A stretch of DNA of 10,688 bases from a virus (taxonomy: Duplodnaviria; Heunggongvirae; Uroviricota; Caudoviricetes), in the IMG/VR virus record IMGVR_UViG_2695420822_000015. One strand, written 5' to 3'. Position numbers and translations under genes: made by a program. Below the pieces are notes generated by a model. That model saw nothing but the letters and a program-made list of their open reading frames with translations, was not told the origin of the DNA and did no database searches. Positions 3,942-10,688 of the stretch are shown piece by piece. How positions within the stretch are numbered: the stretch's first letter is position 1; every line of letters begins with the position of its first letter.

Positions 3942-4719
3942 ATGAAAAACATTGCGGCAGCCGGGGTTCTTGAACGTATTCACAGACTTGCACCACAGGG
4001 GGCGGTTCCACCGTACCGGACGGTGGAGGAGTGGCGGGGGNNNNNNNNNNNNNNNNNNNNNNNNNNNNGAATGGCAACTTGCTGAAGGACGAAAACGCAG
4101 CGAGGAGATTAACCGCCAGAATCGCCAGTTGCGGGTGGAAAAAATCCTGAATCGTTCGGGCATCCAGCCTCTGCACAGCAAATGCTCGTTTGCGAATTAT
4201 CAGGTGCAGAACGACGGGCAAAAATACGCGCTGAGCCAGGCCAAATCCATAGCTGACGAACTGATGACCGGGTGCACGAATTTTGTGTTCAGCGGTAAAA
4301 CCGGCACCGGGAAAAATCACCTTGCAGCGGCGATGGGTAACCGGCTGATGGCGAAGGGGCGCAGCGTGATTATCGTCACCGAGTCTGATGTCATGAGCGT
4401 GTTGCATGACAGCTACGACAACGGCAAATCCGGTGAAAAATTTTTACAGGAGCTTTGTGGTGTTGACCTGCTGGTCCTGGATGAAATTGGCATGCAGCGG
4501 GATACGAAAAACGAGCAGGTGGTACTGAACCAGATTGTTGATCGCCGGACGGCATCGTTACGCGGTGTGGGGATGCTGACAAATATTAACCATGCAGCGA
4601 TGAATACACTTCTCGGCGAGCGGGTGATGGATCGCATGGTCATGAACGGCGGGCGCTGGGTGAATTTTAACTGGGAGAGCTGGCGTCCGAATGTTAGCCA
4701 TTCGAGGGTTGTTAAGTAG
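3942..4719 (+). CDS. DnaC-like helicase loader (phage replication protein, AAA+/IstB-like), interrupted by assembly gap
   Basis: Walker A FSGKTGTGKNHLAAA, Walker B DLLVLDEIG; C-terminal LGERVMDRM closely resembles E. coli DnaC. ATG 3942 (MKNIAAAGVLERIHRL...) lies 6 nt after the O-like stop. The track's TTG 3952 start is in another frame and is an artefact of the 28-N gap. Confidence 0.8.
4041..4068. other. Assembly gap (28 N) inside the dnaC-like gene
   Basis: Run of N; gap length is not a multiple of 3, so the reading frame across it is undefined. Confidence 0.95.
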
Positions 4720-4750: not shown

Positions 4751-5154
4751 ATCACTTAGCGGCAGCTATCGGGAATCGCCTGCTGAAAGACGGTCAGACA
4801 GTGATTGTGGTTACCGTGGCTGATGTTATGAGCGCCCTGCACGCCAGCTATGACGACGGGCAGTCAGGCGAAAAATTTTTGCGGGAGCTGTGCGAAGTGG
4901 ATCTGCTGGTTCTTGATGAAATTGGCATTCAGCGCGAGACGAAAAACGAGCAGGTGGTGCTGCACCAGATTGTTGATCGCCGGACAGCGTCGATGCGCAG
5001 CGTGGGGATGCTGACAAACCTGAACTATGAGGTGATGAAAACATTGCTCGGCGAGCGGGTGATGGATCGCATGGTCATGAACGGCGGGCGCTGGGTGAAT
5101 TTTAACTGGGAGAGCTGGCGTCCGAATGTTAGCCATTCGAGGGTTGTTAAGTAG
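4751..5154 (+). pseudogene. Second, 5'-truncated copy of the dnaC-like 3' region (fragment; likely chimeric join)
   Basis: Starts in-frame at ..NHLAAAIGNRLLKDGQ.. right after a single N (4750) that interrupts the start of the downstream gene (ATGGCGAAACCTTTTA, 4735-4749). Segment 4610-4749 is identical to 5045-5184. Confidence 0.6.
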
Positions 5155-5168
5155 TTTCAGGAGGATTT

Positions 5169-5353
5169 ATGGCGAAACCTTTTACTCCCGAACAGCGGGA
5201 AGAACTGAAGACGCGAATTGTGGAACTCGTGCATCAGGACGGTCGGGTCACGATTCGGCAGTTGTCAGATGAAACAGGTATCAGTCGTGCGTCTGTCGGT
5301 CGCTTATGCATAGAACTGGTCGCAAGTGGTGATGTATATAATTCTGGCTACGG
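5169..5353 (+). CDS. Hypothetical winged-helix-like protein, 5' portion only (truncated at N 5354)
   Basis: RBS AGGAGGA then ATG 5169 (MAKPFTPEQREELKTRIVELV...GISRASVGRLCIELVASGDVYNSGY). Reading frame is broken at the N junction, where sequence switches into a dnaC fragment. Confidence 0.5.
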
Positions 5354-5354
5354 N

Positions 5355-5599
5355 TCCTGGATGAAATAGGCATTCAGCGGGAGACGAAAAACGAGCAGGT
5401 GGTATTGCACCAGATAATTGATCGCCGGACAGCATCACTGTGCAGTGTCGGGATGTTAACAAACCTGAATCATGCCGCAATGAGCACGCTTCTTGGTGAG
5501 AGGATTATGGACCGCATGACCATGAACGGTTGTCGGTGGGTGACGTTTAACTGGGATAGCTGGCGTTCAAATGTCAGCTTTCCGGGAGTTGTGAAGTAA
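5355..5599 (+). pseudogene. Third, 5'-truncated dnaC-like 3' fragment (divergent allele)
   Basis: Encodes ..LDEIGIQRETKNEQVVLHQIIDRRTASLCSVGMLTNLNHAAMSTLLGERIMDRMTMNGCRWVTFNWDSWRSNVSFPGVVK*. Begins immediately after N 5354. C-terminus differs from copies 1 and 2. Confidence 0.6.
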
Positions 5600-5620
5600 T
5601 TTTTGTTGGAGGATGTTTTA

Positions 5621-6346
5621 ATGGAAACTGTATTTGACGCACTGAAAGCACTGAAAAGAGCCTCTTCACATGTGGTGGCGTCCCGCCTTGGAATCAGCCG
5701 TGAAGATGCGGTCAACGAACTGTGGAAACTGAAGCGCCGTGGTGAAGCGGATAACAAGGGTTCGATGTGGTGGCTGATTCAGGCTGGTGAAAGTGAACCA
5801 GTGTCACCGGTACCGAAAGTGACAGCGCAAATGCTGACTGAGGCGATTGAACAACATGGCCCACAAACGGCGGATGAGCTGGCACTGATGTTCGGGATTA
5901 CCTCCCGCCGGGCGAATTCATCGCTGGCCATGGCAATCAGCAAAGGGCGTCTGATTCGCGTGAATCAGGGCGGTAAATTTCGGTACTGCATACCGGGCGC
6001 TGATTTACCGGCAGAGCCGAAAGCCGCATCCATAGCGGAAACGGATGGTAAAGTCTTTCCTCAGCCAGCAGGTGTTGCGTTACCGGTACAGGAAGCTGCA
6101 ACACAGGAAGAAATTAAAACAGAAACTGTGGCGGACATTGTGCAGTCGTTGCCATCGTTCACCGAAACGCAAGCGGATGACCTGGTTTTACCATCGCTGC
6201 ATATGGCAAACCGCGAACTGCGTCGGGCGAAAAGTCATGTCCAGAAGTGGGAGCGTGTCTGCGCCGCGTTGCGGGAGCTGAACAAGCACCGGGATATTGT
6301 TCGACAGATTGTCGATTCCTCCGGTCGTATTGTGTCGGAAAAGTGA
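5621..6346 (+). CDS. Hypothetical phage protein with two putative winged-helix-like segments (241 aa)
   Basis: GGAGGA SD 7 nt upstream of ATG 5621 (track start TTG 5603 is in the same frame). Follows the third dnaC fragment. Segments [22 protein letters not shown] and [31 protein letters not shown] resemble the wHTH of the neighbouring gene family. Confidence 0.6.
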
Positions 6347-6361
6347 TTGCCGGGGGCGCTT

Positions 6362-6501
6362 ATGGCAAAAGTATTTACACAGGAAGAGCGGGAAAAAATT
6401 AAGGGGCAGGTTGTTGAACTCGTACGCCAGAGTGGGCGCGAGACGTTACGACAACTGGAAGCTAAAACCGGGGCGACAAGATATTTAATAAGCGTTCTCG
6501 C
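6362..6501 (+). CDS. Hypothetical winged-helix-like protein, 5' portion (runs into 63-N gap)
   Basis: ATG 6362, MAKVFTQEEREKIKGQVVELVRQSGRETLRQLEAKTGATRYLISVL; paralogue of 5169..5353. Truncated by the gap. Confidence 0.5.
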
Positions 6502-6564
6502 NNNNNNNNNNNNNNNNNNNNNNNNNNNNNNNNNNNNNNNNNNNNNNNNNNNNNNNNNNNNNNN
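6502..6564. other. Assembly gap (63 N)
   Basis: Run of N. Confidence 0.95.
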
Positions 6565-6611
6565 ATTCTATTTCAGGAAGGAGTGTCCGTTAAACTCAGG
6601 CTACCTCAAAA

Positions 6612-6998
6612 ATTAAAGGGCAGGTTGTTGAACTTGTACGTCTGAGCGGTCGCGAGACGTTGCGGCAACTGGAAGCCAAGACAGGTGCGACAAGATATCT
6701 GATGAGTGTTCTCGCCAGAGAGCTGGTTGCCAGTGGCGATGTATACAACTCTGGTTACGGGTTATTCCCGTCTGAACAGGCGCGTAAGGACTGGCAAAAC
6801 GCCCGCAAAAAACTCTCAAGGGCAAATCTGAAGAAACCATCTGTGGTTGATCCTGACCTTATCTGGTCATTACCAGACGGAGAAATACGCCGCTACGACA
6901 GGCGTCAAAACATAATCTGTAGCGAGTGCCGGAAGAGTGAAGTTATGCAGCGTGTACCGGCTTTCTATCAGGGTGATTTTCAGGAGGCGGTACTGTGA
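6612..6998 (+). CDS. Hypothetical winged-helix-like protein, 3' portion (5' end lost at gap/junction)
   Basis: In-frame IKGQVVELVRLSGRETLRQLEAKTGATRYLMSVLARELVASGDVYNSGYGLFPSEQARKDW...QGDFQEAVL*. Overlaps the pre-gap copy by about 32 aa with substitutions (Q to L, I to M), so the two pieces are different alleles. In-frame stop at 6591-6593 upstream. Confidence 0.5.
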   Translation: MKGQVVELVRLSGRETLRQLEAKTGATRYLMSVLARELVASGDVYNSGYGLFPSEQARKDWQNARKKLSRANLKKPSVVDPDLIWSLPDGEIRRYDRRQNIICSECRKSEVMQRVPAFYQGDFQEAVL

Positions 6999-7055
6999 GT
7001 GAAATTAGCTATCAGGCTTCAATTACCGCTGGCATTCGCATCAAAGGAGAGGAGC

Positions 7056-7412
7056 ATGGAAATAAAACCAGAAGATGAGTTAAGCAATATTGTTTTATTT
7101 CCGGTAAAAGAGGATAACCCTCGTAATCAGGTTAATTTTCTTTATGAGCCATCGGAAAGACCATATTGCCATCACGCCTCTGTCCGGGTTGACGAAAAAG
7201 AGCGTCAGGTCCGCTGTAAAATTTGCGGTGCAGTTGTGGAGCCATTTGACTGGATGCTCTCTGTGGCGAAAAGAGAAACCAGACTGGCAGATGATGTAAG
7301 GCTCTTGCGCCAGGAGGAGCGGGAAAGGCGAAAAAATATAGAAAAGCTAATCCAGATTGAGCGTAATGCGAAAGCGCGGATACGCAGGGTGACAAAATAT
7401 AGCCCCGAATAA
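7056..7412 (+). CDS. Hypothetical zinc-ribbon-like protein (118 aa)
   Basis: Strong SD GGAGAGGAG before ATG 7056. Motif Y-C-H-H...(14)...C-K-I-C suggests a Cys/His metal-binding knuckle. Basic, Arg/Glu-rich C-terminal tail that may be helical. Confidence 0.55.
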   Translation: MEIKPEDELSNIVLFPVKEDNPRNQVNFLYEPSERPYCHHASVRVDEKERQVRCKICGAVVEPFDWMLSVAKRETRLADDVRLLRQEERERRKNIEKLIQIERNAKARIRRVTKYSPE

Positions 7413-7551
7413 TCAAGGTTATTTCTGGAAGTCAAGTCGTGAGTGATGAGGACTAACAAATACGGTGAACTCGATAAAGAGATTCAGGACGAACTGGAGG
7501 CCAGGAATGATTGACAAATCACCAAGTGAGTTCAGCTACAAAGATTTATTG

Positions 7552-7567
7552 TCATAACGGGTTATGA
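7552..7567. promoter_or_regulatory. Perfect 16-bp palindrome TCATAACGGGTTATGA upstream of the methyltransferase gene (possible operator)
   Basis: 7-bp arms around a 2-bp centre, 60 bp upstream of ATG 7627. A consensus -35 hexamer TTGACA lies at 7511-7516. Confidence 0.35.
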
Positions 7568-7626
7568 GATCGACTTGGTGCGTGATATTCTTCGGGCCAG
7601 TTTGCTATGCGCCACCATGAGATGTT

Positions 7627-9459
7627 ATGGCCCGCATGTTTGATACATTAGGATTTTACATTATGAATGTGCAACATTTTGATTTTTTTACAGATAATGA
7701 GTTTTCTAATCTGGAAAGATATCAAACTTGTAAAGCCATGGCCAAAGGTTATGCGGGCAATTACAAAACCGGGCAGTCAAGGTTGATGCATGCCCGCTCA
7801 TACTGCTTCAGCATCGTAGCTGCATATTGGGATACCCTTGCAAAAAAGCAAAAAAGCAGCATTAAAATGAGGGCAGTACCGCACACTGTTTACATAGAAG
7901 ACATTCCATGTGATGCACGCGAGCTCGCTGAACGAACAGGTGAGCTTATTGCTCAATTTCCGGCGGAGGACGCTGGATATCTGATTGGGTCAATTTATAC
8001 GGTAATGCTGCCATCCGCTTACCGTTCGGAATTGGGGGCTTACTATACCCCCCCACCTTTGGTAGCGCGTCTCTTGGACCTGGCTGAAAAGTCTGGTGTT
8101 GATTTTTCTCATGCATCGGTTATTGATCCTGCGTGTGGTGGCGGTGCATTTTTGGCACCAGTAGCCATTCGAATGTTAAAAAAAGACAAGGGGCCTTCCC
8201 CTGAATGGATGTTGAGGAGAATCAGTCGTCGTTTAAAGGGGATAGAAATCGATCCATTTGCGGCTTGGATGAGTTTGGTATTGCTCGAATCTGTACTAAT
8301 GCCACTATGTGTAAAGGTAAAACGTAGATTGCCTGAAGATACAATTATTGTTGCTGATGCGCTTCAGCAAGATAAATTTTCTGGTTATGATCTTGTGGTA
8401 GGGAATCCGCCTTACGGACGTGTCACTCTCGATATTAAAACGAGAGAAAAATATTCTCGTTCGTTATTTGGTCATGCAAATCTATATGGATTGTTCACCG
8501 ACTTAGCTGTTCGCATGGTTAAAGAGAAAACAGGAGTTATTGCATTTCTTACGCCAACTTCTTTTCTTGGTGGGCAGTATTTCACCGCGCTGCGAACCCT
8601 TTTGACCGAAAAAACTACTCCGTATGCCCTTGATTTCGTCACTGACAGGGATGGGGTCTTTGACGATGTTCTCCAGGAAACAATGTTGACAGCATTCAAG
8701 GCGGGAGAACATAAAGTTCGGGCCCAGGTATCCTCACTTGTCCCTAAGGGGTTGAACAAAGCAAAAATTGAGAAAATAGGTAATGTTGATATAGAAAAAG
8801 GTGGAGCAACGTGGCTTTTGCCACGCGTTAAAGATGATGCCTGTTTTCTTAATGTATTAAAACAGATGTCTACGCGTTTAGCTGATCTGGGATACTCAGT
8901 CTCTACAGGTCAGTTAGTCTGGAATCGATTTAAGTCGCAGTTGCGTACGACGAAAGGAAAAAATAGCTACCCATTAGTCTGGGCGGAATCAATAACTTCA
9001 GCTGGTTTTCGTTTTAGTGCAGACAGAAAAAATCATGTTCCCTATATCGATATAACCCCACAACAGGGTTTCCTTGTGACAAAATCTGAATGTGTGCTTG
9101 TTCAGCGGACAACATCGAAGGAACAGGACAGAAGGATTTTAGCGGCAATTTTACCTCAGGGATTTATAGATGAAACTGGTGGCGTAGTAGTTGAAAACCA
9201 TATTAATATTGTATATTCAAACGGATTGTTCTCTGCGGTTCGCCCTGATGTTATTGATATGCTACTTAATTCGCATGTTGTCGATCGGGCGTTCAGGTGT
9301 ATAAGCGGAAGTGTTGCTGTTTCGGCCTATGAATTGAATTCAATCCCGTTGCCTTCTCTGGAGCAGGTGATGGAGATTCAATCGTTAATTGATGCTGGCG
9401 TCCACAGACGGATTATTGAGAGAACTATCGCTGGTTTCTATGGAGTGATGATTGCATGA
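7627..9459 (+). CDS. N6-adenine DNA methyltransferase, gamma class (Eco57I/TaqI-like motif order)
   Basis: Motif X GAYYTPPPLVARLLDL, motif I IDPACGGGAFL (SAM binding), motif IV VVGNPPYG, in the order X-I-IV. About 130-aa N-terminal extension and about 280-aa C-terminal region (presumed target recognition). AT-rich codon usage. Start could be ATG 7627, 7636 or 7663. Confidence 0.85.
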   Translation: MARMFDTLGFYIMNVQHFDFFTDNEFSNLERYQTCKAMAKGYAGNYKTGQSRLMHARSYCFSIVAAYWDTLAKKQKSSIKMRAVPHTVYIEDIPCDARELAERTGELIAQFPAEDAGYLIGSIYTVMLPSAYRSELGAYYTPPPLVARLLDLAEKSGVDFSHASVIDPACGGGAFLAPVAIRMLKKDKGPSPEWMLRRISRRLKGIEIDPFAAWMSLVLLESVLMPLCVKVKRRLPEDTIIVADALQQDKFSGYDLVVGNPPYGRVTLDIKTREKYSRSLFGHANLYGLFTDLAVRMVKEKTGVIAFLTPTSFLGGQYFTALRTLLTEKTTPYALDFVTDRDGVFDDVLQETMLTAFKAGEHKVRAQVSSLVPKGLNKAKIEKIGNVDIEKGGATWLLPRVKDDACFLNVLKQMSTRLADLGYSVSTGQLVWNRFKSQLRTTKGKNSYPLVWAESITSAGFRFSADRKNHVPYIDITPQQGFLVTKSECVLVQRTTSKEQDRRILAAILPQGFIDETGGVVVENHINIVYSNGLFSAVRPDVIDMLLNSHVVDRAFRCISGSVAVSAYELNSIPLPSLEQVMEIQSLIDAGVHRRIIERTIAGFYGVMIA

Positions 9460-10538
9460 ATCTGCCTGTTGTTCCCCCATTGAATGTTATCCGGGAAAGA
9501 TTACAATTAATTTTCCCTGAAGGGACTGAGAATCGTGGATATTTAATTCGGGAAATAGCTGCAAAAACAATTTTTGTCATGTTTTATGCTGGTGCGGTTG
9601 AGGGGCTGGGGCGATGGATAAGGCCCAGCCAGGTTGTAAGTATGGGAGATTCGCAGGCTGCTCTTACTGATGATGCGTCCAGAGAAAGCTGGGTAAAGAT
9701 GACTTTCTCTAAACAAAAGATAAGGCCTGCTGATGCATGGTATGCGGAAAATACGCGTGAGCCAATACGTGATGAAACTATAAAAAATGGCCTAATACCT
9801 TGCAATGCAATTGTTGAGCGTAAAGGTATACCCACCACATCCTCTCGTCCTCGTTACAGTTTGAATCGCTCTTTTGCAGCACTCTTTGATGCCGGGCTTG
9901 AAGGAGATTCGCTGCTGAGTGCAATAAGTTCCTGGCAAGAAAATCATTTGAACAAAGCCGCTCTTGCTAGGTTGCGTTTATTGAAATCAGGGGCAGTGAT
10001 TGCTGCTGATGCCGTAGTCGTCACTTTCCCAAATGGAGAGAAGAGAACTTTAGCTCCGGGCCCGTCAAGTACAATAGCTAAGGCCGTCATCGAAGTTTTT
10101 GCTCCTAATTTTCTTAAGAATCCAACTGTGCTCTGGTTGTCTGAATCCGGGAATAAAGTTGTTGCTCAGGATGATGTATTGGCAAAAGCATTGGGGCTGA
10201 ATATTGATGCCTCAAAAGCACTTCCAGATATTATTTTGATTGATTTGGGAGAGGACCGAACGGGTTCGGACATGCTTGTAGTTTTCACTGAAGTAGTTGC
10301 GACAGATGGGCCTATAAACAGGGAACGAAAAGTTACTCTCACTCATTTGGCTATTGACGCTGGGTTCAGCGAGAAAAATCTTGCATTCCTTACGGCATTT
10401 ATGGACAGAAGTGCTCTGCCTTTTAAAAAGGCAATACCAGAATTGGCGTGGGGATCTTATGCATGGTTTGCTTCTGAACCGGAGCACTTAATTGATCTTC
10501 GGGATGGTTATCCGGTAAAGATCAGCCAGAGAAAATGA
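9456..10538 (+). CDS. MTase-coupled partner protein (360 aa); putative restriction endonuclease or other effector, family unassigned
   Basis: ATG overlaps the MTase stop (ATGA 9456-9459); GGAG about 10 nt upstream. Same AT-rich composition as the MTase. No Walker motif, HNH or clear PD-(D/E)xK triad identified by eye; candidate acidic cluster IDLGED...FTEVV. Confidence 0.55.
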   Translation: MNLPVVPPLNVIRERLQLIFPEGTENRGYLIREIAAKTIFVMFYAGAVEGLGRWIRPSQVVSMGDSQAALTDDASRESWVKMTFSKQKIRPADAWYAENTREPIRDETIKNGLIPCNAIVERKGIPTTSSRPRYSLNRSFAALFDAGLEGDSLLSAISSWQENHLNKAALARLRLLKSGAVIAADAVVVTFPNGEKRTLAPGPSSTIAKAVIEVFAPNFLKNPTVLWLSESGNKVVAQDDVLAKALGLNIDASKALPDIILIDLGEDRTGSDMLVVFTEVVATDGPINRERKVTLTHLAIDAGFSEKNLAFLTAFMDRSALPFKKAIPELAWGSYAWFASEPEHLIDLRDGYPVKISQRK

Positions 10539-10688
10539 CCAAAGTTTGATATCCGCCACGCCCTGAAGGATGGGGGTTTTACGGTGCACTGGATAAAAAA
10601 TCGGTTTCATAGATTTGCCCACCGTGGTATACGCCTGCGATAAAAACTTTATTGTCATCAACGGCAAAAGCAATAATTGTTCTGTGGC
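10488..10688 (-). CDS. Hypothetical ORF, 5' end beyond window; doubtful
   Basis: Minus-strand frame is open from the window edge to the stop at about 10488. It overlaps the 3' end of the 9456..10538 gene by 51 bp (convergent). No family recognised. Confidence 0.2.
   Translation of the reverse strand, partial: ATEQLLLLPLMTIKFLSQAYTTVGKSMKPIFYPVHRKTPILQGVADIKLWSFSLADLYRITIPKIN

Follow-up and report, generated by a model that had tools for sequence, protein, structure and literature searches.

A widespread zinc-ribbon-like protein gene of lambdoid prophages lies directly upstream of, and very probably outside, a type II restriction-modification cassette

A small gene lying just upstream of a DNA methyltransferase gene may belong to the same functional unit or may be a resident of the phage genome in which both are found. 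This question is raised by a gene, hereafter X, at positions 7056-7412 of the 10,688-nucleotide stretch analysed here (the window), taken from the Caudoviricetes virus record IMGVR_UViG_2695420822_000015. An initial annotation, made from the letters, had described its product as a zinc-ribbon-like protein that could be a regulator or third component of the downstream cassette, or else an unrelated phage gene. The features relevant to the question are as follows.

7027-7055, plus strand: left edge of the X module, including the ribosome-binding site (homology starts at 7027-7029 in copies preceded by Ea22-like genes)
7056-7412, plus strand: X, coding sequence for a 118-aa protein (PHROG 1621; RefSeq "hypothetical protein"; dN/dS)
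7056-7160, plus strand: residues 1-35, acidic (pI 4.4) and predicted to be mostly disordered (pLDDT 51-56, charge)
7161-7241, plus strand: residues 36-62, putative zinc-ribbon-like pair of knuckles, C38-x-H40 … C54-x2-C57, with a beta-hairpin
7242-7400, plus strand: residues 63-115, one long predicted helix with a heptad-like a/d pattern (AlphaFold2, conservation)
7413-7427, plus strand: right edge of the X module (blastn breakpoints 7412-7427, megablast 7398-7430)
7428-10592, plus strand: restriction-modification (R-M) block, very probably a moron and not part of X (Pfam, PADLOC, breakpoints)
7428-7626, plus strand: leader
7627-9459, plus strand: N6-adenine methyltransferase (PF07669, PF02384; PADLOC MTase_II, 994 bits)
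9456-10538, plus strand: BsuBI/PstI-family endonuclease (PF06616, E 9e-45; PF17728, E 1e-30; PADLOC REase_II, 426 bits)
From 10593, minus strand: ParE/RelE toxin gene, inside which the window ends

The reading frame of X is intact, running from an ATG at 7056 to a TAA stop codon at 7410-7412 (118 codons plus the stop), and its product is MEIKPEDELSNIVLFPVKEDNPRNQVNFLYEPSERPYCHHASVRVDEKERQVRCKICGAVVEPFDWMLSVAKRETRLADDVRLLRQEERERRKNIEKLIQIERNAKARIRRVTKYSPE. The ribosome-binding site, AAGGAG at 7044-7049, stands 6 nt 5' of the ATG within GGAGAGGAG (7046-7054), and both start codon and ribosome-binding site are conserved. The position and the strong ribosome-binding site originally assigned to this frame were thus borne out. 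The locus is shared by two E. coli chromosomes, FDAARGOS_943 and VL7S7, in which RefSeq places a coding sequence that is exactly X and names it "hypothetical protein", the DNA of X being 99.4% identical to the one annotated in FDAARGOS_943. A longer form starting at GTG 6999 was considered and rejected, since homologues align from ATG 7056 and homology to the copies preceded by Ea22-like genes starts only at 7027-7029.

Comparison of X with six other copies from E. coli and Stx phages gave dN/dS values of 0.08-0.19. In comparisons with the homologues of Yersinia, Serratia, Klebsiella, Salmonella and Erwinia, pS reaches saturation (0.8-1.0) and pN is only 0.05-0.15 across residues 84-111, a combination of low pN with saturated pS which shows that the conservation of the C-terminal helix reflects constraint on the protein rather than an embedded DNA or RNA element. 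Sequence comparison thus confirms X as a real gene under purifying selection. Replication-gene fragments and runs of N in the surrounding window might point instead to a spurious frame or a pseudogene decaying in a degraded prophage region; against the intact frame, these dN/dS values, the conserved start and ribosome-binding site, and the occurrence of X in 1679 genomes and 1621 protein clusters, the chance of such an explanation being right is negligible.

The irregularities of the window are found upstream of X. Runs of N occupy 4041-4068, 4750, 5354 and 6502-6564, the last of which (63 bases) falls inside the DUF977 gene, with N-terminal coding part on both of its sides (6347-6501 and ~6611-6700), and explains why GC content seems to fall at 6300-6750. 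Two gene fragments, the C-terminal part of a second DnaC/IstB-like ATPase (4801-5154) and the N-terminal part of a second DUF977 gene (5169-5369), separate the intact DnaC-like gene (3952-4719) from DUF1627 (5603-6346). They are either the scar of a recombination between two Rac-like replication modules or the product of a chimeric assembly. Regarding base composition, the GC content of X (0.448) is close to that of the cassette (0.43-0.44) and below that of the replication genes (0.50-0.55), so that the composition intermediate between both regions, as first perceived, was not recovered.

X is already catalogued, and it is an ordinary gene in its context. Its residues 1-115 match positions 1-118 of the 134 of the PHROG 1621 profile (E 1.1e-54, 184.6 bits); this entry, to which no function is attached, is the family of X, with no feature setting them apart, and further members stand in RefSeq (e.g. 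WP_005140877.1 and WP_001302146.1). When 1.8 billion representative proteins were searched with a profile, 1621 clusters (50% identity) were retrieved at E<=1e-3, of which 261 reach E<=1e-10. The 22 phage GenBank records matched by tblastn label the gene "hypothetical" or, in four LC6454xx Stx2a phage records, leave it unannotated. X matches no Pfam, NCBIfam or PADLOC family above cut-off, and a Pfam scan of 115 distant members returned neither a common family nor an informative extra domain or fusion. No solved structure of a relative was found, and the literature search found nothing on the protein, the words "zinc ribbon" in PMC12315714 belonging to the title of a reference. Phage lambda carries no true homologue (its best match is NinF, E 0.056), and its absence from lambda would explain why the family is not known to have been studied.

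Some database proteins join X to an upstream neighbour. DUF977-X fusions of 278 aa are rare (five singleton clusters, P0262-P0266), and Ea22-X fusions of 201-264 aa form several small clusters (P0006, P0010, P0122, P0267-P0272). In the window, the DUF977 frame and X share one reading frame (6660-7412) and are separated only by a TGA at 6996-6998 and 57 nt, and where an Ea22-like gene precedes X, both genes overlap by 23 nt. Both kinds of fusion would be explained by a lost stop codon, or by a frameshift in the overlap or at the in-frame TGA, and they were set aside as functional clues on account of their rarity and of their clusters containing one or two sequences.

The architecture of the protein was explored with a close alignment of 28 homologues (43-92% identity), a distant one of 115 members (22-37% identity) and an AlphaFold2 model. 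Cysteine and histidine residues are found at C38 (7167-7169), H39, H40, C54 (7215-7217) and C57 (7224-7226). C38, H40, C54 and C57 are invariant among the 28 close sequences, with H39 variable, while among the 115 distant ones C38, C54 and C57 are invariant and at least 90% keep H40, R50, L98 and R108. Hence, the C-H-H...C-x2-C motif initially pointed out is present, but H39 drops out of it, the candidate zinc ligands following the pattern C38-x-H40-x13-C54-x2-C57. The AlphaFold2 model, only moderately confident as a whole (mean pLDDT 74.5, pTM 0.39), places a beta-hairpin at residues 43-46 and 51-54, in a block of pLDDT 65-83 across residues 31-60, and a single helix of 53 residues at 63-115, with pLDDT 90-95 over residues 81-110. 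Matches to known ribbons fall below threshold: the Pfam Zn_Ribbon_TF model (PF08271) scores 21.6 bits (E 1.6e-4) against a gathering threshold of 29, and S27e (PF01667) scores 13.7 bits against a cut-off of 24.5. Seven of the 115 distant members match Zn_Ribbon_TF at E<=1e-3, and the top Foldseek match of the model is the N-terminal ribbon of TFIIB (E 0.17, probability 0.84). Altogether, the conserved ligands, the modelled hairpin and the sub-threshold TFIIB and S27e matches uphold the description as zinc-ribbon-like.

The highest conservation is found further downstream, in the distal basic third of the helix (residues 84-111, LRxEExxRRxNIEKLIQIERNAKARIRR), which is nearly invariant. In the close alignment L84, R85, E87, E88, R91, R92, I95, K97, L98, I99, I101, E102, N104, K106, R108, I109 and R110 do not vary, and a C-terminal signature with the consensus ERNxKARxRR is kept in the distant alignment at 22-37% identity. 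Residues 84-118 contain 12 K+R and 6 D+E (pI 10.9), in agreement with the Arg/Glu-rich charged tail previously noticed, and the best heptad register of the helix has hydrophobic residues at 10 of its 16 a/d positions. At the opposite end, E6, F15 and P16 are invariant among the close homologues. Within the predicted disordered acidic N-terminus, residues 6-16 (7071-7103) form the peptide E6-x-E8-L9-x-N11-[IV]-[IV]-x-F15-P16, of which [IV]-x-F-P is retained in homologues at about 25-35% identity; this ELxN[IV][IV]xFP peptide may be a docking motif. Alignments and model thus support X being a zinc-ribbon-like protein with a long basic helix, its zinc binding being a prediction.

The neighbouring cassette is recognised by Pfam and PADLOC as a type II R-M system of the BsuBI/PstI family, with methyltransferase and endonuclease in adjacent genes. 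It had been taken for a pair of methyltransferases, a label that these assignments correct, since the second gene encodes a restriction endonuclease. Its closest R-M relatives, with 60-66% aa identity, come from Erwinia dacicola, Salinimonas, Idiomarina and Burkholderia. Together with the minus-strand ParE/ParD genes it forms one block of ~3.8 kb (7428-10688 in the window, 7070-10880 in the sister locus L003), and the ParDE part is shared with the Stx phage ArgO145. A scan for promoters and terminators detected nothing on the plus strand between X and the methyltransferase gene; in particular, no intrinsic terminator, sought as a refuting sign, is predicted on that strand before 7500. Read-through transcription from X into the cassette is possible, and it would be incidental and say nothing about function. 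The Rfam scan of the window gave no match, and the predicted fold of the leader region (7400-7640) is not unusual (z = -0.69).

The distribution of both elements is far more informative about their relationship. Of 5426 complete E. coli genomes, 1679 (about 31%) carry X, at 2132 places in all. The cassette is present in two of the 5426, with X directly upstream in both and adjacent to it only there, leaving 2130 of the 2132 places without it. The reverse search, made with both X profiles within 4 kb of 54 loci that carry relatives of the methyltransferase (most at 40-66% identity, from very diverse bacteria and archaea), found X at none of them, and 44 have an endonuclease gene immediately downstream; the best profile match (E 0.014) lies within an opposite-strand ORF of 430 aa. 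Likewise, no R-M genes lie beside the X homologue in any of the 12 loci of distant homologues examined. Among the 80 IMG/VR loci closest to X, all with near-identical E. coli copies, DUF7167 is found downstream in 60 and the cassette in five, and these five have a leader 100% identical to that of the window. Both cassette-bearing E. coli genomes share with these five loci one identical junction, which, like the leader, points to a single insertion lineage. The five are also the only IMG/VR loci whose X protein matches that of the window at 99-100% identity. The cassette-linked allele of X ends in …VTKYSPE and the common one in …(A/V)TKSRTE, with substitutions in the last five codons (7399-7410), and homology to cassette-free copies continues past them to 7427.

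Module edges agree with this distribution. Homology to cassette-free prophages ends 0-15 nt after the stop codon of X, and in copies preceded by Ea22-like genes (ArgO145, ST131, 2013C-4361) the left breakpoint falls at 7027-7029. In the sister locus L003, the homologous sequence starts again only past ParE/ParD, just before DUF968-RusA-Q. From these breakpoints, the R-M and ParDE genes are inferred to be a moron inserted downstream of X.

The surroundings of X in other genomes delimit where it belongs. In Rac-like prophages of E. coli, it follows O-like and DnaC-like genes (with or without DUF1627), DUF977 and, in some cases, DUF4406 and an Ea22-like gene, and it is followed by DUF7167 or a 70-aa hypothetical protein, then hokD and, further on, DUF968-RusA-Q. 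The order is Ea22-like-X in the early-left region of the Stx2a phage ArgO145, NinG-NinH-X-75aa-Q in Yersinia, RusA-X-Q in Serratia and Erwinia tracheiphila, X-YlcG-Q in Klebsiella and Erwinia endophytica, and DUF1627-DUF977…X in Salmonella. The Yersinia, Serratia, Klebsiella and Erwinia prophages have X in the nin region, shortly before the gene of antiterminator Q. Two distant metagenomic members have small early genes as neighbours, and one of these members directly precedes a DnaC-like/primase-helicase module. Therefore, across several lineages X shares the strand of its neighbours and lies between replication genes and Q, or in the pL ea region, without any constant partner gene; all that stays the same is its place in a delayed-early operon, read in the direction of the other genes. 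In many cases the gene before it overlaps X by 4 nt. X is often translationally coupled to this neighbour, whichever gene it may be. In two Klebsiella prophages (L012, 10488-10772; L013, 10489-10782) a gene matching the Acb2_Tad1_hairpin Pfam family (anti-defence) follows the X homologue at a distance of a few kb; placed after the lysis genes and non-adjacent to X, it is probably unrelated.

Taken together, it is almost certain that X is an autonomous, conserved accessory gene of the delayed-early operons (pR/nin-type, sometimes pL/ea-type) of lambdoid prophages of Enterobacterales, that the mosaic module in which it moves is gene-sized (7027-7427), and that the R-M and ParDE block is a moron occupying a variable slot just 3' of X, where it replaces DUF7167…hokD. 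By the same sequence comparisons, X is almost surely no part of the R-M system that follows it, and their adjacency would have arisen by insertion of the cassette just downstream. A role within the R-M system, whether as a controller timing the endonuclease or as a specificity or anti-restriction partner, could draw on X being co-oriented with the cassette and 214 bp upstream of it, with a comparable GC content and no predicted terminator between, as well as on X being kept upstream of the cassette in both E. coli genomes and the five IMG/VR loci that have it. Nevertheless, such a role is highly improbable when X is found at 2130 of its 2132 places without the cassette and at none of the 54 related R-M loci, when distant homologues adjoin Q, RusA or NinH and never R-M genes, when homology to cassette-free prophages covers X from end to end and is lost shortly behind the stop codon, and when the protein lacks a helix-turn-helix (Pfam at E<=1, AlphaFold2) and is unrelated to Lar. 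The co-occurrence check suggested with the initial annotation hence speaks against its proposal of a regulator or third component, X being widespread without the cassette (2132 places versus two genomes) and missing from the related methyltransferase loci; the distribution bears out its fallback of an unrelated phage gene.

What X does for the phage can be proposed with much less confidence. We would guess, at low confidence, that X is an accessory protein of the delayed-early operon, dimeric, stabilised by zinc and able to bind nucleic acid, and this mechanism taken together with the identity and placement of the gene makes the best overall explanation, even if its chances as a whole stay somewhat short of even. 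X would be a small zinc-stabilised protein in which the C-x-H…C-x2-C ribbon caps the long helix, the helix pairing with that of a second copy of X as a coiled coil. The arginine/lysine-rich helix end (ERNAKARIRR) and the ribbon would bind nucleic acid, either DNA or an early transcript, and the acidic N-terminal peptide (…ELSNvvxFP) would dock on a partner or be masked by one. In this way X, without being essential, might modulate replication, recombination or the switch to late genes during lytic development or upon induction, its role probably lying outside restriction or modification.

An invariant charged helix suits a protein-protein interface equally well as nucleic-acid binding. X could thus be a host-takeover or counter-defence factor acting by contact with a conserved host protein, the helix, the …vvxFP peptide or both clamping a component of replication, recombination, RNA polymerase or immunity, and the ribbon serving as a structural cap. 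Charged surface residues of a single helix that stay invariant at 45% overall identity, under constraint at the protein level, would fit such contacts, as would a short motif kept in distant members within a disordered acidic N-terminus, the location of X among accessory early genes, which are typically aimed at host functions, and the weak resemblance of the ribbon to the RNA-polymerase-docking ribbon of TFIIB. On the other hand, X has no PADLOC match and no likeness to known inhibitors (hhalign probability 2.4% with Lar), and its TFIIB-type matches stay below threshold (21.6 versus 29 bits; Foldseek E 0.17). We give this takeover role slightly less weight than nucleic-acid binding, both at low confidence. 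A wider reading, which we put forward tentatively, is that the family represents a new class of zinc-ribbon/arginine-rich-helix factor that would bind nucleic acid or a host protein and modulate the early-to-late switch, replication or recombination: a large (at least 1621 clusters at 50% identity), uncharacterised family without a Pfam model, possibly defined by the C-x-H…C-x2-C ribbon and a helix ending in ERNxKARxRR.

For the locus, these results portray the R-M cassette as a self-contained two-gene unit that, along with the ParDE toxin-antitoxin, was probably inserted into a Rac-like prophage at a variable slot. They portray X as resident phage backbone, which keeps it from being mis-annotated as a controller or third subunit of the R-M system. 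This gene of unassigned function, under strong purifying selection, is present in about 31% of complete E. coli genomes, and its characterisation would annotate thousands of prophage genes.

X can finally be set against known systems with which it shares some traits. R-M controller (C) proteins are likewise encoded by small genes just upstream of R-M genes, but X lacks their Xre-type helix-turn-helix and does not co-occur with R-M. Lar, the restriction alleviation protein, is, as X, a small Cys-rich prophage protein; the Lar family (PF14354) was tried and rejected, with no Pfam match and an hhalign probability of 2.4% between the distant alignment and the Lar-family protein of locus L016. NinF of lambda is also encoded in the nin region and shows local similarity at the C-x2-C knuckle, although hhalign aligns only 19 columns there (probability 58%, not significant), and NinF is a small Cys-rich protein of 56-57 aa without the long helix of X. 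DksA/TraR-type phage proteins, such as lambda Orf73, combine a coiled coil with a zinc finger and bind RNA polymerase. They resemble X as small early phage proteins with a zinc knuckle domain and a long helix, but X reverses the order, ribbon first and helix last, and has a single helix instead of a hairpin; X gave no match to Pfam zf-dskA_traR at E<=1. The TFIIB-type and S27e-type ribbons (PDB 1pft, 1qxf) have, as predicted for X, two metal knuckles flanking a beta-hairpin with similar spacing; the first knuckle is C-x-H in X versus C-x2-C in those ribbons, and X adds a 53-residue basic helix that is absent from their domains.
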